A stretch of 11,790 bases of DNA from Candidatus Krumholzibacteriota bacterium. Lineage in GTDB: Bacteria; Krumholzibacteriota; Krumholzibacteriia; LZORAL124-64-63. Of the stretch, positions 228-11,790 are shown piece after piece. Numbering within the stretch: the stretch's first letter is position 1; each line of letters begins with the position of its first letter. The position numbers and the translations under genes were made by a program. The stretch covers positions 1 through 11,790 of the forward strand of contig JBDLKA010000106.1 of NCBI GenBank assembly GCA_039714075.1, read 5' to 3'. Under the pieces are notes generated by a model, which did not search any database, was not told the DNA's origin, and was given only the letters and a program-made list of their open reading frames with translations.

Positions 228-1202
228 CTACTTCAAAAGGACCATGCTGCGGGACACCTGGCCGGTTGCGGTCTTCAGCACATACCTGTACTGGCCGGCT
301 GAGACGGGGGTGCCGCTGTTGGTCTTTCCGTCCCAGGTCACGTGGTGTTCACCCGCGCCCAGTTCTCCATGATGCAGGGAGGCGATCCTGCGGCCCGCGA
401 TATCAAACACCGAAATATCCACCATGCCGGGACGGTCCAGGGCGAAATCGATCCGGGTCAGGGGATTGAAGGGATTCGGGTAGTTCTGGTCCAGGGTGGC
501 TCCCAGGGCGGCGGTGCCGACCGGGACGCTCGTAACACCGGTCTGTTGCCAGACGATGTTGTCGTAGAAAATCCCGGCGCCCTCGTAGTTGGTCGCGGTG
601 TTGGCGAAGCCGATCTGGAGAACCTGGTTCTCCAGGCTCGCGTCGATGGGAATGTTGATCGAGTAGCCGCCCCACTCGATGGGTATGGCCGTCATGTCCA
701 CCGTGAGGAAGTTGGTCAGGGCCCAGCCGGCGCTGGGATCCAGGGTCTTGATGAAGGCCACGGCGGTCGATGCCAGTTCCAGGTTCCCCATCTTGGCCTG
801 GAAGGCGAAGGTCCAGATATTGCCGACGTCCGCGGCGGTGACGACCTGTTCCTGGAAAGTGTTGGATTCGATGAGATTCCCGATGCCATGGTCGGTGTTG
901 TTGTAGTCGCTGAAGACCACCAGCTGCTGGTGGCCCTGCGCCAGTCCGCCTTCACCGGTGTCCACCTGGCAGAAACCGAAGCCGTCGTTGGGGGCCGGGA
1001 AGGGGCCGTAACCGTAGAGGTAGTTTCCGTCCGGGTCGAAGACGTTCCCGTAGACCAGCCAGCCGTCATCGGACAATGAGAAAGGATCGAGGTGATCCAT
1101 GGCTTCGAAGTCCTGGCTGTAGGGTGCCAGCGCGAAACCCGCAGCGGGTATCAGACAGACCAACAGGCCGACCGCGAAGACAGCTGCAGCTCCATTTTTC
1201 AT
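228..1202 (-). CDS. Secreted protein (324 aa) with a putative carbohydrate-binding beta-sandwich domain and a C-terminal T9SS type-A-like sorting / FlgD Ig-like domain
   Basis: The start was reassigned to ATG 1202 (MKNGAAAVFAVGLLVCLIPAAGFA), which gives a Sec signal peptide and has a GAGAGG RBS upstream. The C-terminus LDQNYPNPFNPLTRIDF...VFDIAGRRI...WDGKTNSG...SAGQYRYVL...RSMVLLK is the classic FCB C-terminal domain pattern. The middle region is aromatic-rich and ends in IFYDNIVW, typical of CBM-like jelly-roll modules. Confidence 0.85.
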   Translation of the reverse strand: MKNGAAAVFAVGLLVCLIPAAGFALAPYSQDFEAMDHLDPFSLSDDGWLVYGNVFDPDGNYLYGYGPFPAPNDGFGFCQVDTGEGGLAQGHQQLVVFSDYNNTDHGIGNLIESNTFQEQVVTAADVGNIWTFAFQAKMGNLELASTAVAFIKTLDPSAGWALTNFLTVDMTAIPIEWGGYSINIPIDASLENQVLQIGFANTATNYEGAGIFYDNIVWQQTGVTSVPVGTAALGATLDQNYPNPFNPLTRIDFALDRPGMVDISVFDIAGRRIASLHHGELGAGEHHVTWDGKTNSGTPVSAGQYRYVLKTATGQVSRSMVLLK

Positions 1203-1325
1203 TTCAGTGGCCTCTCGTTGAAGAAAACTCTCTTGCCGCCTTGTCAAGTGATCCAGGTGAATCGTGGGAAGCGGTTGCCGGATTCCGGATCCGCCGTTTC
1301 CGGGGCACAAAATCCGAGAGAGATC

Positions 1326-1542: not shown

Positions 1543-2946
1543 ATGAGCCGAATCGATTTTCCTGACGGATTTGTCTGGGGTGCCGCTACCTCGGCGCAGC
1601 AGATCGAGGGCGGGACGCAAAAAGATGGCCGTGGGGAGTCCATCTGGGACCGTTTCGCCGCCCAGTCGGGAAAAATCGAGGATGGGTCGACTCCCGAACA
1701 TGCCTGCGACCATTACCACCGCTGGCGCGAGGATATCGATCTGGTGAAGTGGCTGGGCCTGGGGGCCTACCGTTTTTCCATCGCCTGGCCGCGGATCATT
1801 CCCACCGGCACGGGCCGGGTCAATCCCGCCGGCCTGGATTTCTATGACGCCCTGGTGGACGGCCTTCTCGAAGCCGGCATCCAGCCCTTTCCGACGCTGT
1901 ACCACTGGGATCTGCCCCAGGTTCTGCAGGACGAGGGCGGCTGGGCCTCGCGCGAGACGGCCCAGGCCTTTGTTGAATACTCGGCGGCCGTCACGCGGCG
2001 GCTGGGAGACCGCGTCAAGCAATGGACGACGCATAACGAACCCTGGTGCATCGCCACCCTCGGACACGAAGAGGGGCATCATGCTCCCGGGCACAAGGAT
2101 CCCGCCGAGGCTCTGCACGCCGCGCATCACCTGCTGCTGTCCCACGGCTGGGCGGCCGGGGCCATCCGGGGAGAGGTTTCCGGGGCCAAGGTGGGCATCG
2201 TCCACAACTACTGTCCCTCGTATCCCGCTACCGACAGCGAAGGTGACCGGGACGCGGCCCGCTGGTTCGACGGATTTTTCAACCGCTGGTATCTCGACCC
2301 GGTCTTCCGGGGTTCATACCCCGTGGACGCGGTCGCCGACAGGGTCGCCGCCGGCCACCTGGCGGGGCCGGACATGCCGTTCGTGAAGGACGGCGACATG
2401 GCGGCCATCGCCACTCCGCTCGATTTCCTGGGGTTGAACTACTACAGCCGCAACGTCATGGCCGCTGGTCCGGACGGCGGGCGCCGGGATGTCAAAATGG
2501 CGCCTCCCGAAGAGCTGACCGACATGGGGTGGGAGGTCTTCCCCGAAGGGCTTTACGACAGCCTGATGCGGGTCCACCGTGAGTACGGTCCGAAGAAGAT
2601 CTACATCGCCGAAAACGGGGCGGCCTACGAATATCCGGCCGACGCGAAGGGCCGCATCGCCGACGAAAAGAGGGTCACCTATCTCCGCGATCATTTCCTG
2701 GCCGCCCGCAGGGCCATGGCCGAGGGAGTTCCCCTGGAGGGTTACTTCGTCTGGTCCCTGATGGACAATTTCGAATGGGGCTACGGCTTCACCAAGAGGT
2801 TCGGCCTTTTCGGTGTCGATTACGAAACCCAGCAGCGTATCCCCAAGGACAGTGCCTTCTGGTACCGCGACGTCGCCCGCGCCAACGCCGTCGACGACTC
2901 TACCCAGCCATCAATCCAAGGAGAATCCCGTGCCTGCGATCGCTAA
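1543..2946 (+). CDS. bglA: GH1 beta-glucosidase (467 aa, cytoplasmic)
   Basis: GH1 motifs are present throughout: FPDGFVWGAATSAQQIEG, ACDHYHRWREDI, YRFSIAWPRI, TLYHWDLPQ, acid/base HNEPW, LNYYS, nucleophile IAENG, WSLMDNFEW. It has a GGGAG RBS and no signal peptide. Confidence 0.96.
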   Translation: MSRIDFPDGFVWGAATSAQQIEGGTQKDGRGESIWDRFAAQSGKIEDGSTPEHACDHYHRWREDIDLVKWLGLGAYRFSIAWPRIIPTGTGRVNPAGLDFYDALVDGLLEAGIQPFPTLYHWDLPQVLQDEGGWASRETAQAFVEYSAAVTRRLGDRVKQWTTHNEPWCIATLGHEEGHHAPGHKDPAEALHAAHHLLLSHGWAAGAIRGEVSGAKVGIVHNYCPSYPATDSEGDRDAARWFDGFFNRWYLDPVFRGSYPVDAVADRVAAGHLAGPDMPFVKDGDMAAIATPLDFLGLNYYSRNVMAAGPDGGRRDVKMAPPEELTDMGWEVFPEGLYDSLMRVHREYGPKKIYIAENGAAYEYPADAKGRIADEKRVTYLRDHFLAARRAMAEGVPLEGYFVWSLMDNFEWGYGFTKRFGLFGVDYETQQRIPKDSAFWYRDVARANAVDDSTQPSIQGESRACDR

Positions 2947-5900
2947 AGGCTGCCTTCGTTCCTCCGCCCGGTTCGCCCTGGTAATCCTCCTGCTCCTGGC
3001 CCTGGGTCCGGTTTCCGCCGCGACCGGGACCGCGGATGACCACATGCCTGAAATCAAGGTGGTTCACGACGAGGGTGGTTCCCGGCTTCAGGTGGACGGC
3101 AGGGACTTCATGGTGCTGGGGATGAACTGGGGTTACATGCCCATCGGCCAGAACTACACCTACAGCCTGTGGACCAAGCCGGACCACATCATCGAAGCCG
3201 CCCTGGCCAAGGAGATGCCCCTGCTTCAGGCCATGGGGATCAACACCATCCGGCATTACGTGGGCATGCCTCCGCGCTGGGTCGAATACGTGTACGAGAA
3301 ATATGGCATCTACACCGTGTTGAACCATACGATCGGCCGTTACGGGCTGACCATCGACGGCGCGTGGCTGCCGAACACCGACTACAGCGATCCCAGGGTG
3401 CGCGAAACCCTGAAGGCGGAAATGCGGGCTCTGGTGGACGAGTTCAAGGACACGCCGGGTGTTTTGATGTGGCTGCTGGGCAACGAGAACAACTACGGGC
3501 TGTCCTGGTCGTCGTTCGAGATCGAGGCCCTGCCCGAAGGCGAACGCAACGCGGCGCGGGCGCGCCATCTCTATTCGCTTTTCGGAGAGATCATCCGCGA
3601 CATCAAGGAGCGTGATCCCGGCCGGCCCGTGGCCATGGCCAACGGTGATCTGCAATACATCGACATCATCGCCGAGGAGTGCCAGGGGCTGGACGTGTTC
3701 GGGTCGAACGTGTATCGCGGCATCTCGGCGCGGGATTTCTACGAGGTGGTCGACGAGAAGCTGGGTGTGCCGACCATGTTCACCGAGTTCGGCGCCGACG
3801 CCTTCAACGCCGTCACCATGAAGGAAGACCAGGCGACGCAGGCCTACTACCTGCTGGGCCAGTGGCGGGAAATATACGAACAGTCCGCGGGCAAGGGCCG
3901 GGTGGGCAACGCCATCGGCGGGCTGATCTTCCAGTGGAGCGACGGCTGGTGGAAGTACAAGCAGGAGGAACGGCTGAACATCCACGACACCAACGCCTCG
4001 TGGCCGAACGGCGGGTATCCCGAGGATTTCCGCGAAGGCGACAACAACATGAACGAGGAGTGGTGGGGTATCTGCGCCAAGGGGTACTCCGATCCCCGCG
4101 GGCTGTACGACGTCTATCCCCGCGCCGCCTATTACGCGCTGCGCGACGCCTTCCGGCTCGACCCCTACGCGCCCTCGACGGACATCGACATGATCCGCAC
4201 CCACTTCGGCAACATCCAGACCATGGGGGCGGTTACCGAGGCCCGGGGCGACGCGGCCAGTCTGGCGACCGACGTGTTGAGCAAAGTGCGCGTTTCCAGT
4301 TTGCGGATGGAGTTCGAGACCTACAGCACCGGCGGCAGGAACATCTCGACGCCGGACATCGAGGAACCACAGAAGGCCTATCCTTCATTCCTCGGCTTCG
4401 ACCACGGCCAGTCGTTCTATGCGGACATCGAGGCCAAGCCCAATGACGGCATCATCGGCAGGATGTCCCTGAATGTCCTGGGCCGGGTGGCGAAGAATCC
4501 CATCGACGAAATTTTCTACGAGAACCGCGGCCGTCCCCGCACCATAACGGACAACAACGGCGATCTGGTGGAACTCGAGTCGCTCGAGCGCGTGAAAATC
4601 TACCAGGCCTCGGTCACCTGGGACGACCGCTGGTTCAATCTGGATGCCTTCTACCGCACCGGCCACCTCCACTGGCAGTACGAGGGCGATTTCTTCGGCC
4701 TGTACCGCGACGCCTATTACGGTGAAAACATCGACATCTACAACGGCGAAGCCCCCCTGGGTTTCGAAATCGCCGGCAAGAAGCTGTTCAACGGATTGAA
4801 GGTGGCCTTCGGGCCGCAGCTCTGGTGGGGCGCCAACCCCGCGGTCTTCGTCAAGTACCAGCGGTCGCTGGCCGGGATGCAGTGGACGGGCATGTTCCAG
4901 GAGGACTTCGCCCAGCAGACGGCCCTGACCAGCAGCGTTGCCATCCCGATACGTACCACCCGCAAGGCCTCCCTGCAGATGCAGACCGGTCTGGGTCCCT
5001 TCAACTTCGAGGGCGGGGTCCTCTGGTCTGGTCAGCCGCGCAAGGATGAATCCTTTGAGCTGATCGACGAAGACCTCGTGAATTCAGGCGGGCCTATCGC
5101 CCCGGAGGACATTCGCACCGATACGATCAAGCCGGAGGACACCTTCGGCTTCAAGGGCAAGCTGACCTGGCAGGACGGGATCTGGAACTGGTACGGCCAG
5201 GGCGCCTACATGGGTCTGGTTGCCGACGCCGGACCGACGGCCATTCCGACCTTCACCGGTTGGGGGCTGAAGGACAGCGGTTCGGGCAACCAGATCAACG
5301 GGGTAACGGGGGCGGCTGTTACACTGGGCAAGTGGCAGGTCGGTCCCAACTTCCTGTGGCAGAAGCCCATCGTCGGGCCGATGCCCCATGCGGACGATCT
5401 TGAATTTACGCAAGGCAGTCCCCGCAACGTCCTGGATGATCCCTTCGCCGTACGCTACAACCGCGAAACCACCGCCGCGGAGTTCATGCTGACCTACGAC
5501 CCCACGCCCGCCACCTGGATGTGGAACTGGGACAGCGACGTCCGCGAGGACGCGAACCTGGCGGCCAGTCTGGGCTTCATCATCAAGAAGCACCACACCA
5601 CCGCCGACGCCGGCCTGTTCATCTCCAAAGAGAATGAGGTGTACTCCTTCGGCGGCTCCACGCCCGCCCGCGATTGGGGCGACCTGTGGGAGGTGAACTG
5701 CCGCATCGTCAACCGCTTCGGACTGACCACGCGCATGATCAGTCACATCTACTTCGGCACCGCCGAGCCCAACGGGGACAACGAGCGGCTGGTCAAACGC
5801 TTCGGCGCCGACAGCCGGATCGCCTGGCCTGCGGTGGCCCTGGCCGGCCACGTGAAGGTCAACGATTACGGAATCTACGACTACCATCGGGACCACAACC

Positions 5901-6136
5901 TGACCTATCCGTTGCAGCTGATGGCGGACATCTCCTTCAACCTGGGCAAACCCCAGTGGTTCAACTTCCCGCAGACGCGGTTCGGAGTACGGGGCACCTT
6001 CCGCACCCTGGACCAGTTCTCAAGCCGCTACTGGCCCGACGGTGAACCCGAGCTGGAGGAGGGCGAGATGTATCCCGAGGGGCTGCCCGAAGGAAGGGAA
6101 TGGGAAATCCGGACCTATCTGCACCTGGTCATCTAG
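2930..6136 (+). CDS. Secreted clan GH-A (GH2/GH158-like TIM barrel) glycoside hydrolase fused to a predicted outer-membrane beta-barrel (1068 aa)
   Basis: A GTG start at 2930 has an AAGGAG RBS (2918-2923), overlaps the GH1 3' end and exposes a signal peptide (...FALVILLLLALGPVSA). The N-terminal domain has MGINTIRHY, WLLGNENNY (putative acid/base Glu at 3485-3487), TEFGAD (putative nucleophile at 3785-3787) and FQWSDGWWK. The region from ~4280 onward contains many alternating amphipathic, aromatic-flanked strands and ends WEIRTYLHLVI. Confidence 0.8.
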   Translation: MPAIAKGCLRSSARFALVILLLLALGPVSAATGTADDHMPEIKVVHDEGGSRLQVDGRDFMVLGMNWGYMPIGQNYTYSLWTKPDHIIEAALAKEMPLLQAMGINTIRHYVGMPPRWVEYVYEKYGIYTVLNHTIGRYGLTIDGAWLPNTDYSDPRVRETLKAEMRALVDEFKDTPGVLMWLLGNENNYGLSWSSFEIEALPEGERNAARARHLYSLFGEIIRDIKERDPGRPVAMANGDLQYIDIIAEECQGLDVFGSNVYRGISARDFYEVVDEKLGVPTMFTEFGADAFNAVTMKEDQATQAYYLLGQWREIYEQSAGKGRVGNAIGGLIFQWSDGWWKYKQEERLNIHDTNASWPNGGYPEDFREGDNNMNEEWWGICAKGYSDPRGLYDVYPRAAYYALRDAFRLDPYAPSTDIDMIRTHFGNIQTMGAVTEARGDAASLATDVLSKVRVSSLRMEFETYSTGGRNISTPDIEEPQKAYPSFLGFDHGQSFYADIEAKPNDGIIGRMSLNVLGRVAKNPIDEIFYENRGRPRTITDNNGDLVELESLERVKIYQASVTWDDRWFNLDAFYRTGHLHWQYEGDFFGLYRDAYYGENIDIYNGEAPLGFEIAGKKLFNGLKVAFGPQLWWGANPAVFVKYQRSLAGMQWTGMFQEDFAQQTALTSSVAIPIRTTRKASLQMQTGLGPFNFEGGVLWSGQPRKDESFELIDEDLVNSGGPIAPEDIRTDTIKPEDTFGFKGKLTWQDGIWNWYGQGAYMGLVADAGPTAIPTFTGWGLKDSGSGNQINGVTGAAVTLGKWQVGPNFLWQKPIVGPMPHADDLEFTQGSPRNVLDDPFAVRYNRETTAAEFMLTYDPTPATWMWNWDSDVREDANLAASLGFIIKKHHTTADAGLFISKENEVYSFGGSTPARDWGDLWEVNCRIVNRFGLTTRMISHIYFGTAEPNGDNERLVKRFGADSRIAWPAVALAGHVKVNDYGIYDYHRDHNLTYPLQLMADISFNLGKPQWFNFPQTRFGVRGTFRTLDQFSSRYWPDGEPELEEGEMYPEGLPEGREWEIRTYLHLVI

Positions 6137-6137
6137 G

Positions 6138-6947
6138 TCAGGGAAGGGTTCCGTAGACCCGGACGTGATCCACCAGCATGGTCTGGGGGAAGACCGTATT
6201 CTCGTCGGGAGGGCCGACCCACCGGCCGCCGACGGCGACGTTCAGGATGATGAAGAAGGGGTGGTCGTAGACCCAGGTCGCCCCGGACGGAAGATCGGCC
6301 CGGTTGACCGTGTGGTAGTTGTACCCGTCGACGAACCAGCTAATGGAATCCTCGTTCCACTCCACGGCGAATTCGTGGAAACCGAGGTGGAATCCCCCCT
6401 GGGCCAGGACATGCTTTCCGGAAATCGCTGAATTCCCGTAGTGGCCCGGACCGTGAATGCTGCCGACCAGAACGCGCGGTTCCTGGCCCCGGTATTCCAT
6501 GATGTCGATCTCTCCGCACGCCGGCCAACCCACCTCGTCGATGTTGCCGCCGAGAAGCCAGAAGGCGGGCCAGATGCCCTGGCCGATCGGCAGCTTGATC
6601 CGGGCCTCGAAGCGGCCGCGGGTCCGTTCGAAGAGACCCTTGGTCTTGATGCGGCCCGAAGTGTAGGGCTGACCCTCGAATTCCTCCTCGCGGGCGGTGA
6701 TGGCCAGGTTTCCGGCACCGTCCAGGTAGACGTTCTCCGCACGGTCGGTGTCGTATTCGAGCTGAAGGTTGCCCCAGTCGGTCCCGATGTCGAACACCCA
6801 TTTTGCGGGGTCGGGCAGCTCGCCGGCCGGTCCTTCGAATTCGTCCTGCCAGATGAGGCCGTACTCCGGGGCCGGTTCGTCCTCGTCGCAACCGGCGAGG
6901 GCCGCGAAAACCAGCAGCACCGCCATGAGGGTCATCGCCCTTCTCAT
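6138..6947 (-). CDS. GH16 endo-beta-1,3(4)-glucanase / laminarinase-type lipoprotein (269 aa)
   Basis: It has lipobox LAGC (Cys20) and motifs LIWQDEF, YTSGRIKT, GRFEARIKLP, GIWPAFW, catalytic GEIDIME (6495-6515), PFFIILNVAVGG and MLVDHVRVY. There is an AGGAGG RBS and an ATGA overlap with the ROK stop codon. Confidence 0.93.
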   Translation of the reverse strand: MRRAMTLMAVLLVFAALAGCDEDEPAPEYGLIWQDEFEGPAGELPDPAKWVFDIGTDWGNLQLEYDTDRAENVYLDGAGNLAITAREEEFEGQPYTSGRIKTKGLFERTRGRFEARIKLPIGQGIWPAFWLLGGNIDEVGWPACGEIDIMEYRGQEPRVLVGSIHGPGHYGNSAISGKHVLAQGGFHLGFHEFAVEWNEDSISWFVDGYNYHTVNRADLPSGATWVYDHPFFIILNVAVGGRWVGPPDENTVFPQTMLVDHVRVYGTLP

Positions 6948-8215
6948 GACGCCGCCCCTCCTGTCGACGAATTTGCAGAGGTGTCGATGGCGGGAAAGAG
7001 ACGGGAGTCCCCGAGCGCGGTCTTCAGGACCAGGGTGGCGGCGCCGACGGCCACCGACTGGGGGCCGAGTTTGCTGGCCAGGATTTCCGCCGCCGCGACC
7101 GAGCTGACGAGAGTGTGGGTTTGAACCCTTTCGCGCAGCGGCGCAAGCACCAGTTCGCCGAGCCGGGCCAGATCTCCGCCCAGGACCACCACCGCCGGGT
7201 TCATCAGGTTCAACAAGCCCGCCACGGCGGTGCCCAGGTGGGTGGCGGCTTCCCGGATGACCTCCAGGGCGAGCGTGTCCCCCGCCAGGGCCGCGTTTTC
7301 GATGTCGTGAACGGTGAATTTTTTTCCGGTCAAGGCGCTCTGGGGGTATTCGGACTCAAGTTCTGCGGCGCGGGCTTCCAGAGCCCGCCCTCCGACCAGG
7401 GTAACCAGGCATCCCCGCAGCCCGCAGATGCAGCGCTTTCCCTGGGGGTCGATGGAAATGTGCCCAATTTCGCCGGCAACCCCGGTAGCGCCCCGGTAGA
7501 TTTCCCCGCCGATGACATGTCCGGAGCCGATACCGGTGGCCACCTTGATGTAGGCGAGGTTGTCGGCGTCGCCGCCCAGGCCCCACCAGTGTTCGGCAAG
7601 GGCGCCCAGGTTGGCGTCGTTGTCGACCAGCAGGGGTACGCCGTATTTTTCGCTGAGCTCATCGAGACCGAGCCGTTCTTCCCAGGCGGGCAGAACGACG
7701 GTCGAGAGGCGGTCCGGATGCGAGGGGTCCACCGGGCTGGGCACCGCGACGCCGATTCCGACCAGGGGCCGGTGGACGGCGGCGGGGGCTTCGAGACAAT
7801 GTTTGCAAAGCTCGGCGATGACCTGGCGGGTTCCCGACGGATCGTTGCGCACGGGATGTTCCCGGGTCACCCACGCCAGCACCTTGCCGCGAAGGTTGGT
7901 CAGGGCGACAGCCACATGGGTGGCGCTCATCTCCACGCCGAGGATGACACAGACGTCGTCCTGGAATTCGATGACGATGGGACGGCGGCCGCCGCGGGAG
8001 GGACCCTCGCCGACCTCGGCGATCAGTCCCATGGGCAGGATCTCACTGACCACCTCGGATACGGTGGATCGGGAAAGGCCGGCCCGGCGCGCGATTTCGG
8101 CGCGGGAAATATGGCGTTCTTCCCAGATGAGCCGCAGCACCGCGTCCGCCAGGGGCCGCGGCCGGTCCGGGTCGGTTCTCCGTAGGCCTTTCCAGGTCAA
8201 GTTGTCGTTCTGCAT
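6944..8215 (-). CDS. ROK-family (NagC/XylR/Mlc-like) transcriptional repressor (423 aa)
   Basis: An N-terminal HTH (ISRAEIARRAGLSRSTVSEVV) and GGRRP linker precede ROK-domain motifs GIGVAVP, DNDAN, TGIGSG, AGEIGH, Zn motif CICGLRGC and NLMNP. Confidence 0.93.
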   Translation of the reverse strand: MQNDNLTWKGLRRTDPDRPRPLADAVLRLIWEERHISRAEIARRAGLSRSTVSEVVSEILPMGLIAEVGEGPSRGGRRPIVIEFQDDVCVILGVEMSATHVAVALTNLRGKVLAWVTREHPVRNDPSGTRQVIAELCKHCLEAPAAVHRPLVGIGVAVPSPVDPSHPDRLSTVVLPAWEERLGLDELSEKYGVPLLVDNDANLGALAEHWWGLGGDADNLAYIKVATGIGSGHVIGGEIYRGATGVAGEIGHISIDPQGKRCICGLRGCLVTLVGGRALEARAAELESEYPQSALTGKKFTVHDIENAALAGDTLALEVIREAATHLGTAVAGLLNLMNPAVVVLGGDLARLGELVLAPLRERVQTHTLVSSVAAAEILASKLGPQSVAVGAATLVLKTALGDSRLFPAIDTSANSSTGGAAS

Positions 8216-8257: not shown

Positions 8258-9694
8258 CTATTTGTGCCAGTAGACATTGTCCACCAGGACCGTCTCCGCG
8301 CGGGTGGGACCCGCCGTGGCGGTGCTTATGACCAGCTGTCCGATATTGGACCAGTCCCAGTCGTCCCAGGTGTAGCCCGGAATATCGGGGTTGATCTGGA
8401 AATCCGCGAGCGGGATGTCCAAAGGCATCCAGGCCCCCGCGTCGAAGGGCGGGACGGAAGTCGGGCCGAGCAGCAGGTCGTAGGTCTGGATCTTCTCGAT
8501 GCCGGGGTCGGCCGGGAAGGAGACCAGTTTGATCTTCAGGTCCGACCCGGCCGGAGCATAGACGTCCAGGTGGAGGTGCGTCATGTCGGAGGCGTCGATC
8601 GTCGGGTTCAGGAACTCGATGCCCACGTAGAAAAGATCCGAATACATCTTGGTGTCGTCTTCCGCGACGACATAATCCTGGAGATATCCTCCGTTGGACC
8701 AATTGGTTCGCCAGGTGTCGACCAGGACGTCGTCATAGGCGTTGCTGAACATGGAAACCACGTCGCCGGCGGGAAGACCGGGAGGTGTCGCGGCGGTTGG
8801 CGGCGGTGCGTACACCGTCACGTCGATATAACCGGTGGCGGGGACTCCCTCCAGTTCTGCGGTAATCCGCGCATTGCCGGGAGCCAGAAGATTGATCTCG
8901 ATGCCGGTCACGACCGCGACCGAGGGGTCCGAGGATAGGTAGTCGAAATAGTAGGGCGAATGTCCGACCGAGATTGTCGCGCCATCCACCATGAAGTCCG
9001 TAAAGGCGCCGCCGAGGGTCACCTTGGAGCCGACGAAGTATTTCTGTCTCCAGTAGCCCAGATCGGGATCCGGGTCGCTGATGTTGCCCAGTTTCGCGTA
9101 TCTTATCTCGTCGATCCAGATGTCGTAGCCGTCGGGGAAATTTTCGTCCGGAGCCTGGGCGAAGGTGAACAATCCCCGTTCGGCGATCAGCTTGGACGGC
9201 GCCGGGATGGGGATGATCACGAAGGTCCAATCACGTGTCAGATGGATTCCCAAACGTCCGACTTCATACCGTGAGGTGCCGGTGTTGTCGTTTCCGAAGC
9301 CGGTTGCCGCAAGTTCGAGCGGATTGTTGGCGCGGGCGTAGAATGTCAGGGCGTTGTAGCCGGACAGATCCCGTTTGCCCACCGAGGTGATGACGCCTCC
9401 GGTGAACAGCCCCAGGGAGGATCCGGTGGGGGGGATGTTGAACTTCAGGGAACGGTTTCCGTCGGGGGCAAACCCGTTGTACGAATAGACGGAGTCCATT
9501 TCAACGCCGGTATAATGAGTCCGGAAAAACGGCTGGAAGTAGACGTCCTCGCTGTAATCATCGTCGAAAACCAGAGGATCGTTGTTGGCGGAGGAGACCG
9601 GCAGATCGGTGGGGTTCCGGTCACTGCATCCGGTACCGAGAATCAGAAGGGATATCGCCGCCAGGGCGAACAGGTGGCTTCTGGACTGGTTCAC
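8258..9694 (-). CDS. Multi-domain lipoprotein, putative surface glycan-binding protein (CBM-like, Ig-like, Pro/Thr linker, CBM-like; 478 aa)
   Basis: The start was reassigned to GTG 9694 (GGAGG RBS 6 nt upstream), giving VNQSRSHLFALAAISLLILGTG-C with a lipobox. Module 1 has RDLSGYNALTFYARA...IWIDEIRY. An Ig group-2-like segment YLSSDPSVAVV...GNARITAEL and a PPPTAATPP linker follow. Module 3 has DVVSMFSNAY...IDASDMTHLHLDVY...WMPLDIPLADF...LVDNVYW. No catalytic GH motif was recognised. Confidence 0.75.
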   Translation of the reverse strand: MNQSRSHLFALAAISLLILGTGCSDRNPTDLPVSSANNDPLVFDDDYSEDVYFQPFFRTHYTGVEMDSVYSYNGFAPDGNRSLKFNIPPTGSSLGLFTGGVITSVGKRDLSGYNALTFYARANNPLELAATGFGNDNTGTSRYEVGRLGIHLTRDWTFVIIPIPAPSKLIAERGLFTFAQAPDENFPDGYDIWIDEIRYAKLGNISDPDPDLGYWRQKYFVGSKVTLGGAFTDFMVDGATISVGHSPYYFDYLSSDPSVAVVTGIEINLLAPGNARITAELEGVPATGYIDVTVYAPPPTAATPPGLPAGDVVSMFSNAYDDVLVDTWRTNWSNGGYLQDYVVAEDDTKMYSDLFYVGIEFLNPTIDASDMTHLHLDVYAPAGSDLKIKLVSFPADPGIEKIQTYDLLLGPTSVPPFDAGAWMPLDIPLADFQINPDIPGYTWDDWDWSNIGQLVISTATAGPTRAETVLVDNVYWHK

Positions 9695-9758
9695 TTTGCG
9701 CCTCCGCATGGTATACTGAATTCGAGTCCTTATGGCAGGCCGTCGGGCCATGACCGAT

Positions 9759-9845: not shown

Positions 9846-10553
9846 ATGCGCGTCAAAGCCATTGTTTTTCTCAGCCTGATCCTCCTGCTGATGTCCGTGG
9901 TGTCGTTTTCAGCCGAAAAACCGGATTCATGGCGCGAAGTGACCTTCCCCAGCCCCGACGGGGGAACCGTCTCGGCCGATCTTTACGGCGATGGTGATCA
10001 CGGAGTTATCCTGGCCCACGGCCGCATCTTCGACAAGCAGAGTTGGCGGCCCCTGGCGACCCGTTTGGCTCAGGAAGAAATGACGGCGCTGCCCATCGAC
10101 TTCCGGGGGTACGGGTCGTCGCAGCCGGGCGAGCAGGAAGGCGCCCTCCACAACGATGTCCTGGCCGCGATCACCTACCTGCAGGAAGCGGGGATGGAAA
10201 AGGTGTCCGTGATCGGAGGAAGCATGGGCGGTGGGGCGGCGGCCCGCGCGGCGGTCGCCTCCGAAGAGGGGGACATCCACCGCCTGATCCTGCTGTCGCC
10301 CGTTCCCATCGAGCATCCCGAAGAAATCCGGGCCGGTTCCCTGCTCTACGTCGTCAGCGCCGAAGAGGGCATGTTCGAGGCCGTGAAAAGCCAGTACGAA
10401 AAAGCACCCGAGCCCAAGCGGCTGGAGATCCTCCCGGGCGCCGCCCACGCCCAGCACATCTTCAAGACGAGCCTGGGGGACGACCTTAGTGAGCTGCTCA
10501 TCGGATTTCTGGATGGGGCGAATGAAGAGGTTTCGCCCGCACCTGCGGAATAA
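9846..10553 (+). CDS. Secreted alpha/beta-fold hydrolase (esterase-like, 235 aa)
   Basis: It has a signal peptide (MRVKAIVFLSLILLLMSVVSFSA), oxyanion segment ILAHG, DFRGYGSS, nucleophile elbow GGSMGG and a C-terminal His in GAAHAQ. An AAGGA RBS is present. Confidence 0.88.
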   Translation: MRVKAIVFLSLILLLMSVVSFSAEKPDSWREVTFPSPDGGTVSADLYGDGDHGVILAHGRIFDKQSWRPLATRLAQEEMTALPIDFRGYGSSQPGEQEGALHNDVLAAITYLQEAGMEKVSVIGGSMGGGAAARAAVASEEGDIHRLILLSPVPIEHPEEIRAGSLLYVVSAEEGMFEAVKSQYEKAPEPKRLEILPGAAHAQHIFKTSLGDDLSELLIGFLDGANEEVSPAPAE

Positions 10554-10785: not shown

Positions 10786-11790
10786 ATGCAGGCGGGAACG
10801 ATGCTGGCCCATTATCGGGTCGAGGAAAAGATAGGCAAAGGCGGGATGGGCGAGGTCTTCCGCGCCCATGACACCAAGCTGGGCCGTGACGTGGCCTTGA
10901 AAATCCTGCCGCCCGAGTTTTCCCGGGACAGCGACCGCATGGCCCGTTTCGAGCGCGAGGCCAAGGTTCTGGCTTCGCTGCACCACCCGAACATCGCTTC
11001 CATCTTCGGCTTCGAATCAACCGGTGAATGCACTTTCCTGGTCATGGAACTGGTTGCCGGCGACGACCTGGCCGCTGTTCTGGCCAATGGCCCCTTGCCG
11101 GTGGATGAAGCCGTCGAAGTCGCCCGCCAGATCGCCGAAGGCCTGGAGGAAGCCCATGAAAAGGGCATCGTCCACCGCGACCTGAAACCCGCCAACGTCA
11201 AGCGCACGCCCGACGGCAAGGTGAAGGTGCTGGATTTCGGTCTGGCGCGGGCTTTCGCCGGCCAGTCCGCGGGGGAAGAGGCTGTTTCCAGCGCGCCAAC
11301 CATGACCGCGGCGATGACCCAGGTGGGCACGGTGCTCGGCACTGCGGCCTACATGAGCCCGGAGCAGGCGCGGGGCAAGGAAGTGGACCGCCGGGCCGAC
11401 ATCTGGGCCTTCGGGGTGATCCTGTTTGAAATGTTGACCGGCCGCCAGCTGTTCGTGGGCGAAACCGCCAGCGACACCCTGGCCGGGATCCTGAAGTCGG
11501 AACCCGAGTGGGAGGAGCTGCCGCCCGGTCTGCCGTACCAGGTCGAACGGGTGCTGCGGCGGTGTCTGGCCAAGGAACCGCGGCAACGATTGCGGGACAT
11601 CGGTGAGGCACGGGTCAGGCTCGAGGATCCGACCGCCGAATCGGGGCTGTTTTCGGGTCCAGTCGCCGCCATGCCGGATGCCGACGGCGGCGGAAGGTGG
11701 GGCAGGCTGTTGCCGTGGGGGCTGCTGGCCGTCAGTCTGGCGGCGGTCGCCTGGCTGGCGTGGGGCCAGTGGAGCAAACCGAAAACGGGC
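10786..11790 (+). CDS. Hanks-type Ser/Thr protein kinase with a transmembrane segment (truncated by the window edge)
   Basis: It is absent from the ORF track because no stop codon falls in the window. A GGAGG RBS (10776-10780) precedes ATG 10786. Manual translation gives MQAGTMLAHYRVEEKIGKGGMGEVFRA...VALKIL...RFEREA...HPNI...HRDLKPANV...KVLDFGLA...GTAAYMSPEQ...DIWAFG, followed by the hydrophobic stretch LLPWGLLAVSLAAVAWLAW. Confidence 0.95.
   Translation, partial: MQAGTMLAHYRVEEKIGKGGMGEVFRAHDTKLGRDVALKILPPEFSRDSDRMARFEREAKVLASLHHPNIASIFGFESTGECTFLVMELVAGDDLAAVLANGPLPVDEAVEVARQIAEGLEEAHEKGIVHRDLKPANVKRTPDGKVKVLDFGLARAFAGQSAGEEAVSSAPTMTAAMTQVGTVLGTAAYMSPEQARGKEVDRRADIWAFGVILFEMLTGRQLFVGETASDTLAGILKSEPEWEELPPGLPYQVERVLRRCLAKEPRQRLRDIGEARVRLEDPTAESGLFSGPVAAMPDADGGGRWGRLLPWGLLAVSLAAVAWLAWGQWSKPKTG

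Follow-up and report, generated by a model that had tools for sequence, protein, structure and literature searches.

The stretch of DNA analysed here, referred to as the window, comprises 11,790 nucleotides of contig JBDLKA010000106.1 from a Candidatus Krumholzibacteriota bacterium and has a G+C content of 62%. The protein under study is encoded by an open reading frame (ORF) at 2930..6136 on the forward strand, and all of its features given below lie on this strand. It has 1068 amino acids (aa) plus a stop codon and is composed of a signal peptide, a glucanase domain resembling glycoside hydrolase (GH) family 158, a helical linker and a predicted 24-strand outer-membrane beta-barrel. The ORF starts with GTG, 7 nt behind a Shine-Dalgarno-like AAGGAG at 2917..2922 that was read from the sequence, and its start overlaps the end of an upstream GH1 gene by 17 nt. 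A signal peptide of the Sec type, as expected of an outer-membrane protein, was recognised at residues 1-30 (2930..3019) by inspecting the translation by eye, without a predictor; it has a hydrophobic core, a type-I cleavage site between VSA and AT, and no lipobox. Residues 1-36 have a low predicted local distance difference test score (pLDDT) in the structural model, and similar N-termini occur in homologues.

Since 5835 of the 8000 scored candidates in the protein collection match this protein at E<=1e-3, the best with 85% identity over the full length, the ORF is a real gene rather than a chance ORF. The best 120 matches are all full-length proteins of about 1050 aa with 61-85% identity and come mostly from metagenome-assembled genomes (MAGs) of Krumholzibacteria and Gemmatimonas. 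Few of them bear a name, which is then 'glycosidase', 'beta-galactosidase' or 'GH2 TIM barrel-domain protein'. The nearest genomic loci belong to Krumholzibacteriia MAGs, with 78-80% identity. An initial annotation of the window had proposed a glycoside hydrolase fused to a large outer-membrane barrel, and all motifs quoted there were found in the translation: GNE at residues 184-186, TEFG at 285-288, the listed strands within 496-1025 and WEIRTYLHLVI at 1058-1068.

The N-terminal catalytic domain (residues ~40-415, 3047..4174) was assigned to the (beta/alpha)8 enzymes of clan GH-A by Pfam, a PDB profile search and Foldseek, with GH158 and GH157 as the closest families. The only Pfam domain in the whole protein is PF02836, a GH2-type TIM barrel, at residues 90-297 (E 7.8e-8). 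A single-sequence search of PDB chains matched GH158 only (9oro, E 0.0074), and a profile of 45 family members matched BuGH158 (6pal, 6.2e-10) and GH158(Pro) (9oro, 1.5e-9), with GH2 beta-galactosidases ranking below. GH158 is thus the closest solved family by sequence profile. Foldseek with the full-length AlphaFold2 (AF2) model placed the laminari-oligosaccharide-bound GH157 of Labilibaculum (LaGH157) and GH158 structures at the top (1.6e-13 to 5e-12), and the fold score of LaGH157 equals that of GH158. The lower matches are GH2, GH5 and other clan GH-A enzymes, PslG among them.

The profile alignment pairs the family motifs LLGNENNYG and FTEFGADAF with GIGNEIELG and ITEWGPTGW of BuGH158. 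N185-E186 (3482..3487), aligned by HMMER with the GNE of BuGH158, is the predicted catalytic acid/base, and E286 (3785..3787), aligned with its TEWG, is the predicted nucleophile; as in GH158, the NE pair follows strand 4 and the second glutamate strand 7. In BuGH158, alanine mutants of N136, E137 and E220 in these motifs are described as inactive (PMC7157763). Among aligned family members, E186 is conserved in 33 of 38 and E286 in 32 of 35. They lie exactly 100 residues apart, and the earlier proposal of a clan GH-A domain of about 400 aa with both catalytic glutamates was borne out. Like GH158 enzymes, this domain is encoded in beta-1,3-glucan loci beside GH16. It differs from them in its identity of only ~15% and in what follows the catalytic domain. 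In BuGH158, it is followed at the C-terminus by an Ig-like domain of eight strands, which packs on helices alpha7/alpha8 (PMC7157763). No such domain was found in the AF2 model between residue ~410 and the barrel, where the DSSP assignment gives two helices only (419-427 and 431-450; 4184..4279), with a pLDDT of 90 at residues 431-440 and of 73 at 441-450. The target carries this linker and a 616-residue barrel instead. Sequence and model comparison identify the N-terminal ~375 residues as a GH158-related glucanase of the retaining type within clan GH-A; its acid/base and nucleophile are intact, and activity is predicted. The domain is named 'GH158-like' here, short of formal CAZy membership.

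The C-terminal 616 residues (453-1068, 4286..6133) are modelled as a 24-stranded barrel of the outer-membrane type, an assignment based on AF2, Foldseek, strand hydrophobicity and the alternation of turns and loops. The full-length AF2 model, built with 45 sequences, has a mean pLDDT of 88.1 and a predicted TM-score (pTM) of 0.64, and residues 445-1068 modelled alone reach a pLDDT of 90.2 and a pTM of 0.87. The latter value indicates that this part is one compact domain. By DSSP, the two models agree on 24 long strands within residues 453-1067, in line with the roughly 20 or more amphipathic strands noted earlier. DSSP on the AF2 models replaced a crude alternating-hydrophobicity scan, which under-calls strands: it detected 15 segments in all, of which 12 lie C-terminally. 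In the window sequence, one face of the strands is 69% hydrophobic (95/137 residues) and the other 28% (39/137). The modelled strands are antiparallel, amphipathic and even in number, and short turns alternate with long loops: the eleven connections after even strands have 2, 3, 6, 2, 2, 2, 2, 20, 5, 2 and 12 residues (median 2), and the twelve connections after odd strands have a median of 25.5 residues. This alternation is the pattern of outer-membrane proteins, whose short turns are periplasmic and whose long loops are external. By it, strand 1 begins on the turn side, where the C-terminus also lies.

In a Foldseek search of the PDB with the barrel model, the matches listed among the top 50 are all outer-membrane barrels: BtuB, MOMP, FepA/PfeA, PirA, LptD, OprC, AlgE, ScrY, the OccK family, chitoporin, MtrB and OmpF. 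Their E-values range from 1.3e-9 to 1.9e-7, and their TM-scores (TMq) reach only 0.18-0.37. The similarity to solved membrane barrels therefore makes the fold class clear, yet no solved family is close and none was assigned. Pfam returned no match at E<=1 for residues 418-1068 of the target and for 16 relatives, and PDB sequence searches, profiles included, returned none to the barrel part. The language-model neighbours of the barrel are unnamed Bacteroidota and Pseudomonadota clusters of 522-729 aa, followed by DUF6029, the Treponema MOSP and Porin_4. This is a lead only, and none of DUF6029, MOSP and Porin_4 has a Pfam match in the barrel. Homology of the barrel to DUF5916 was considered and rejected (hhalign probability 0.3%).

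The most conserved barrel sites are located in the third external loop (W582, G586, D587, F589 and D602), in the loop 813-846 (R832, F839, V841 and R845) and in an unusually long turn at 857-876 (D857, W867 and E873). Loops 576-609 and 813-846 and turn 857-876 are candidates for a constriction or binding site.

The barrel ends in the strand WEIRTYLHLVI (6101..6133), which resembles a beta-signal. Across 45 family members, position -1 is hydrophobic in 44, -3 in 41, -5 in 39 and -9 in 41, and positions -2, -4 and -8 are polar, a pattern that fits the beta-signal. The last residue is F, Y or W in 20 of the 45 members and I, L or M in 24. The terminal Ile of the window copy, mentioned in the initial annotation as a deviation, is therefore a peculiarity of the clade.

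Known classes of outer-membrane barrels were compared with the target. The Plug domain PF07715 and the receptor domain PF00593 have no match in the whole protein (E<=0.01) or in residues 418-1068 (E<=1), and an NCBIfam scan of the target revealed no SusC model (no TIGR04056 signal). The lack of a recognisable TonB plug noted earlier was thereby confirmed at the level of Pfam, and taken together, AF2, Foldseek and Pfam describe the C-terminal part neither as soluble beta-sandwiches nor as a standard TonB-dependent receptor. The segment EIKVVHD (42-48) is superficially similar to a TonB box but is probably none, as it aligns with BuGH158 and forms a strand within the GH fold. Type Va autotransporters have 12 strands and a PF03797 domain. 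The target resembles them in the order of its parts, with a functional domain at the N-terminus, then a helix immediately ahead of strand 1 where they have a pore-spanning helix, and a C-terminal barrel ending in a beta-signal. However, the target has 24 strands and no PF03797, and barrel-only relatives exist, in line with the earlier view that the barrel is too large for an autotransporter. The sugar porins LamB, ScrY, ChiP and CymA have 14-18 strands and no fused enzyme. They are TonB-independent oligosaccharide channels, and ScrY and chitoporin are among the listed fold matches. In contrast, the target shows no sequence relation to them, has 24 strands where a sugar porin would have 16-18, lacks a LamB or porin Pfam match and carries a fused enzyme.

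The family is large, with more than 5,400 protein clusters. An exhaustive HMMER search with the C-terminal 651 residues found 457 clusters at the 50%-identity level, 129 of them at E<=1e-30. Most full-length members of this barrel family have 1000-1100 aa with the barrel at ~450-1060, which indicates that most are enzyme-barrel fusions. In contigs from one genome per species, at least 593 loci encode a relative of the target. The locus surveys reported here cover the best 80 of these, found with an alignment of closer relatives. They come from Krumholzibacteriia, Eisenbacteria, Delongbacteria, Gemmatimonadota, Fibrobacteraceae, Ignavibacteriales, Calditrichota, Rhodothermales, many Bacteroidota and Myxococcota-type MAGs, and the cultured carriers among them include Flavobacterium terrisoli, Robiginitalea aurantiaca and Flavilitoribacter nigricans. 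A search starting from a Flavobacteriaceae member has Yeosuana, Mariniflexile, Algibacter, Flavivirga, Thalassobellus, Lutibacter, Lacinutrix, Gillisia, Arenibacter and Maribacter among its best 120 matches, and Formosa is absent from these 120.

Some members consist of the barrel only. P0211 (597 aa, cluster of 27) and P0217 (564 aa, cluster of 21) come from Pseudomonadales/Oceanospirillaceae, that is, from marine Gammaproteobacteria. These forms have their own signal peptides and stable lengths and lie on contigs of up to 1.7 Mb, from which it follows that the barrel functions without the enzyme. Two further candidates, P0171 and P0154, turned out to be fragments of proteins of ~1020-1050 aa.

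Upstream of the target, at 1543..2946 (+), a GH1 beta-glucosidase (PF00232 2.7e-158; TIGR03356 3.7e-185, above cutoff) has no signal peptide and is cytoplasmic by inspection. Downstream, the target converges on an operon-like array on the opposite strand that runs from a lipoprotein gene, here called U517, through a ROK-family regulator to a GH16 lipoprotein. U517 (8258..9709, -) has the lipobox LGTGC and a likely start at ATG 9709, and the longest ORF reaches 9811. The regulator (6944..8215, -) has an N-terminal helix-turn-helix (HTH) domain and is NagC/Mlc-like (Pfam ROK 8.3e-59 plus HTH; NagC model 7.2e-64, below cutoff). The GH16 protein (6138..6947, -; PF00722 2.6e-23) is an endo-beta-glucanase of the laminarinase type, with the lipobox LAGC recognised by inspection. 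The ROK and GH16 genes overlap by 4 nt (6944-6947). A single base separates the target from the convergent GH16 gene (6136-6138), which leaves no room for a terminator between them. At 228-1310 (-), the window also encodes a secreted protein of 360 aa. Its N-terminal domain is unannotated, and its C-terminal tail resembles FlgD_ig and type IX secretion system sorting domains (PF13860 3.4e-11). In Krumholzibacteriia and related MAGs, its homologues are found next to GH1 and the target gene.

From its N-terminus, U517 comprises a beta domain, a Big_2-like domain and finally a CBM-like (carbohydrate-binding module) domain of ~140 residues, of which homologues have 1-6 copies. Its lipobox is conserved and followed by C-E/S-R-D (CERD in the family). 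The window copy has no Pfam match, and homologues have weak matches to Big_2, CBM11, CBM30, CIA30 and SGBP_B_XBD. In the Bacteroidota homologues of the GH16 protein, acidic residues follow the lipid cysteine (CSTDE, CDSDD and CDNDDD), which we take to resemble the surface-export signal of Bacteroidota lipoproteins. U517 and GH16 are therefore plausible surface proteins, a glycan binder and an endo-laminarinase, respectively.

To compare the gene context, the window proteins were searched with phmmer against all ORFs of the 80 loci, many of which are short. U517 was found in 56 loci, GH16 in 51, ROK in 23, GH1 in 14 and, at E<=1e-5, the FlgD_ig-tailed protein in 21. For the 44 loci flanked by 5 kb or more on either side, the counts at 100 bits or more are 40 for U517, 41 for GH16, 19 for ROK, 9 for GH1 and 7 for the FlgD_ig-tailed protein. 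U517 lies within 300 nt of the target homologue in 18 of these 44. Two loci (L024 and L025) have neither U517 nor GH16. In eight diverse loci, the neighbours are GH16, GH3, GH17, GH30, GH81, proteins with PKD and CBM4 domains, sugar transporters of the major facilitator superfamily (MFS) and Y_Y_Y regulators. In Bacteroidota the order is fixed: a Y_Y_Y regulator, the target homologue, U517 and GH16 are followed by PKD/CBM4 proteins, GH3, a protein of ~1130 aa, GH17, GH30 and MFS. The ~1130-aa protein is a GH149 beta-1,3-oligosaccharide phosphorylase (6hq6, 1582 bits). The loci of the family were classed as laminarin loci, and the suggestion that similar ~1050-aa 'glycosidases' occur near laminarin genes of Bacteroidota and may be widespread agrees with both the loci and the protein searches.

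A published counterpart of this gene set is the laminarin polysaccharide utilization locus (PUL) of Formosa agariphila. It is described as containing GH16_3, GH17, GH30_1, GH149 and GH158 as well as a hypothetical protein with CBM103-like modules; BguR is the regulator upstream of it, and laminarin induces it 70- to 110-fold (bioRxiv 10.64898/2026.01.10.698779). The gene set of the related loci (GH16, GH17, GH30, GH149 and the target homologue) equals this one. By elimination, the 'GH158' of papers on laminarin PULs probably denotes target-type proteins, and the hypothetical protein with CBM103-like modules may be U517. Two observations on these loci are recorded in passing. At L045:1388-4711 (-), in a laminarin locus, a single ORF of 1107 aa encodes a fusion of an MFS_2 sugar transporter and a GH3 beta-glucosidase, comparable to the GH17-MFS fusion published for Formosa. 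At L080:8473-9934, a 1.46-kb AT-rich stretch with two short opposite-strand ORFs (76 and 71 aa) separates the Y_Y_Y regulator from the target homologue, where other Flavobacteriia loci have a short gap or a SusC/SusD set.

The relation to SusC/SusD systems was examined in particular. Among the called ORFs of the eight diverse loci, 72 of 109 were scanned and no Plug, TonB_dep_Rec or SusD domain was found; the scan gave one CarboxypepD_reg domain only, on the opposite strand (L076:3014-5728). In two scans of ORFs of at least 700 aa in other loci, TonB-dependent receptors were found in 0 of 47 and 3 of 42, with 2 and 16 ORFs of that length, respectively, left out for overlap with known genes. 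Most Flavobacteriia loci have the regulator, the target homologue, U517 and GH16 without SusC/SusD. Two of the three receptors are SusC-like genes in the Flavobacteriaceae loci L073 and L079, where SusD, a PKD protein and GH16 come next, and then directly the target homologue, U517 and a second GH16. The distinction from SusC/SusD systems drawn in the initial annotation thus needs correction in one detail: the target module is not always an alternative to them, as 2 of the 80 loci carry both. The three-gene module stands alone behind a regulator or is appended to a canonical SusC/SusD set, which it mirrors gene for gene. In both cases the gene of a ~1050-aa barrel protein, with the same Y_Y_Y (BguR-type) regulator upstream, precedes those of a ~470-aa lipoprotein and a GH16, and the barrels are similar in width, with 24 strands in the target and 22 in SusC. 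Unlike SusC, the target has no plug domain, no recognisable TonB box and no PF00593/TIGR04056 signal, and its enzyme domain stands at the place of the N-terminal extension and plug of SusC. U517 matches neither PF07980 nor PF14322 and is built of beta domains, so it is not a SusD.

With moderate confidence, we read the protein as a channel that takes up laminarin oligosaccharides across the outer membrane and carries a tethered glucanase, which would probably face the periplasm. After Sec export and cleavage of the signal peptide, the barrel would be inserted into the outer membrane. The surface lipoproteins, the CBM-like U517 and the GH16 endo-laminarinase, would capture and nick laminarin. 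As the protein lacks a plug domain, passage of the fragments through the barrel would need no energy from TonB. At the periplasmic exit, its most likely position, the tethered glucanase would shorten the fragments further. The products would be taken up by an inner-membrane sugar transporter, such as the MFS proteins of related loci (none is encoded in the window), and the cytoplasmic GH1 beta-glucosidase would complete the breakdown, with the ROK regulator controlling the locus. We infer that the barrel conducts oligosaccharides and that the enzyme-channel fusion, by cutting at the exit, would hold down the periplasmic level of the species being translocated and thereby maintain flux into the cell.

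By the usual rule for outer-membrane proteins, a strand 1 that starts on the turn side makes the N-terminal enzyme periplasmic. The N-terminal soluble domains of LptD, BamA, ushers, PgaA and BcsC are periplasmic, and the rule together with this analogy makes the periplasmic side the most likely one for the target. Several observations weigh against the proposed uptake channel. The pTM of 0.64 leaves the relative placement of the two domains in the full-length model uncertain, and strand 1 (453-470) has no clear hydrophobic face. The 20-residue helix (431-450) lies immediately ahead of strand 1; this resembles the arrangement in autotransporters and would place the enzyme on the cell surface. 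One relative (P0271) has a CBM4_9 ahead of its GH domain by Pfam, and such modules are more usual on surface enzymes. To our knowledge, a barrel of 24 strands is wider than any known open sugar porin (14-18 strands), so gating or plugging is expected. SusC/SusD in the same array of L073 and L079 implies that the target-type protein need not be the only or the main importer. BuGH158 itself is predicted to be a cell-surface enzyme (PMC7157763). No transport, localisation or activity report was found in the literature for any family member.

Some of these points lead to another explanation, surface display, in which the barrel is an anchor or an autotransporter-like translocator, the GH158-like domain faces outward as an endo-laminarinase and import proceeds via the same pore or another transporter. 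The type Va-like helix, the N-terminal CBM4_9 of P0271, the predicted surface location of BuGH158 (PMC7157763) and the SusC/SusD genes in L073 and L079 would all fit such an arrangement. We nevertheless consider it rather unlikely, if the most serious competitor. We know of no display barrel with 24 strands (12 in type Va and 16 in type Vd), the target has no autotransporter Pfam domain, and the locus already encodes a surface GH16 lipoprotein. In addition, barrel-only members make no sense for a pure anchor or translocator, and the periplasmic N-terminal domains of LptD, BamA, ushers, PgaA and BcsC speak for the opposite orientation.

A further possibility is a gated or energised transporter of a new type, closed by its own conserved loops, U517 or the GH domain and more similar to SusC/SusD than to a porin; binding of substrate, or a coupling of another kind, would open it. 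The 24 strands are consistent with this, as are the best TM-scores among the listed matches, which are to TonB-dependent transporters of 22-26 strands and to LptD. D587, D602, R832, R845, D857, W867 and E873 are each kept in at least 93% of members, and U517 is paired with the gene (40/44 loci; adjacent in 18/44) at the position of SusD. The lack of a Plug domain argues against it, and the EIKVVHD strand appears to be part of the GH fold rather than a TonB box; on balance, a transporter of this kind appears improbable.

Secretion of a beta-glucan through the barrel, with the hydrolase as an accessory like BcsZ, PslG or AlgL, would agree with AlgE among the barrel matches and PslG among the GH-domain matches in Foldseek. 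No glycosyltransferase was found among the neighbours scanned, and the context is catabolic throughout (GH1, GH3, GH16, GH17, GH30, GH81, the GH149 phosphorylase, MFS importers, and ROK and BguR-type regulators), which disfavours an export role and makes it very unlikely. A soluble beta-rich domain with a carbohydrate-binding or structural role, the barrel model being an artefact, is the least credible explanation, given the pTM of 0.87 for a single 624-residue domain, the membrane barrels that make up all listed Foldseek matches, the dyad hydrophobicity of the strands, the mostly 2-residue turns at even connections and the C-terminal aromatic signal.

A bolder version of the uptake channel is that the target, U517 and GH16 form a self-contained, TonB-independent import module, an alternative to SusC/SusD in which a tethered, possibly processive GH158-like hydrolase would pull the glucan chain through the plug-less 24-strand barrel, so that hydrolysis of glycosidic bonds instead of proton-motive force would drive transport across the outer membrane. 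This is a tentative idea that we regard as unlikely to hold in full. A processive GH158 has recently been described (PMC13195107). Such a module would be spread over Bacteroidota, Ignavibacteriota, Calditrichota, Fibrobacterota, Krumholzibacteriota, Gemmatimonadota and Myxococcota.

Both the enzyme family and outer-membrane barrels as such are known; their fusion, this family of barrels and the place it takes in laminarin loci seem not to have been described. No description of a GH-barrel fusion was found in the literature, a provisional result, as most subscription journals were not covered; within the same coverage, the earlier statement that the barrel has no functional description still stands. 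The nearest published idea is the GH17-MFS fusion of Formosa (PMC6246565), in which a laminarin-active enzyme is joined to a transporter and argued to couple cutting and uptake. That fusion is an alpha-helical transporter of the inner membrane, whereas the target is predicted to be a beta-barrel of the outer membrane. A 'porin' in the same paper was considered as a described counterpart; it is a different, nitrogen-linked protein.

CBM9-DUF5916 proteins resemble the target in having a carbohydrate-binding module ahead of a large predicted outer-membrane domain. They differ in having a binding module instead of an enzyme, and they show no detectable homology to the barrel of the target. Genes for DUF5916 proteins were seen within 10 kb of the target homologue in four loci (L025:6355-8952, L032:7297-9717, L033:6432-8813 and L043:1709-3928, the last also with CBM9), and they lie directly upstream of it in the three Longimicrobiales loci.

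Laminarin is among the largest carbon fluxes in the ocean, and its uptake by bacteria is explained by SusC/SusD-type TonB-dependent transporters and separate enzymes. If the proposed uptake channel is correct, it would represent a second route of glycan entry, also in phyla in which SusC/SusD pairs are reported to be almost absent. The preprint on the Formosa PUL assigns 94.4-98.6% of SusCD-like proteins to Bacteroidota. Laminarin loci in metagenomes would have to be read differently, since the gene is now scored merely as 'GH158' or 'glycosidase', and a new family of outer-membrane barrels would be defined. The presence of the family in cultured Flavobacteriia, including Lacinutrix, Flavivirga and Algibacter species, makes the hypothesis directly testable.

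Two further genes of the window have no evident link to the glucan locus. A secreted alpha/beta-hydrolase of 235 aa is encoded at 9846-10553 (+), and the start of a Ser/Thr protein kinase with a C-terminal membrane segment lies at 10786-11790 (+).

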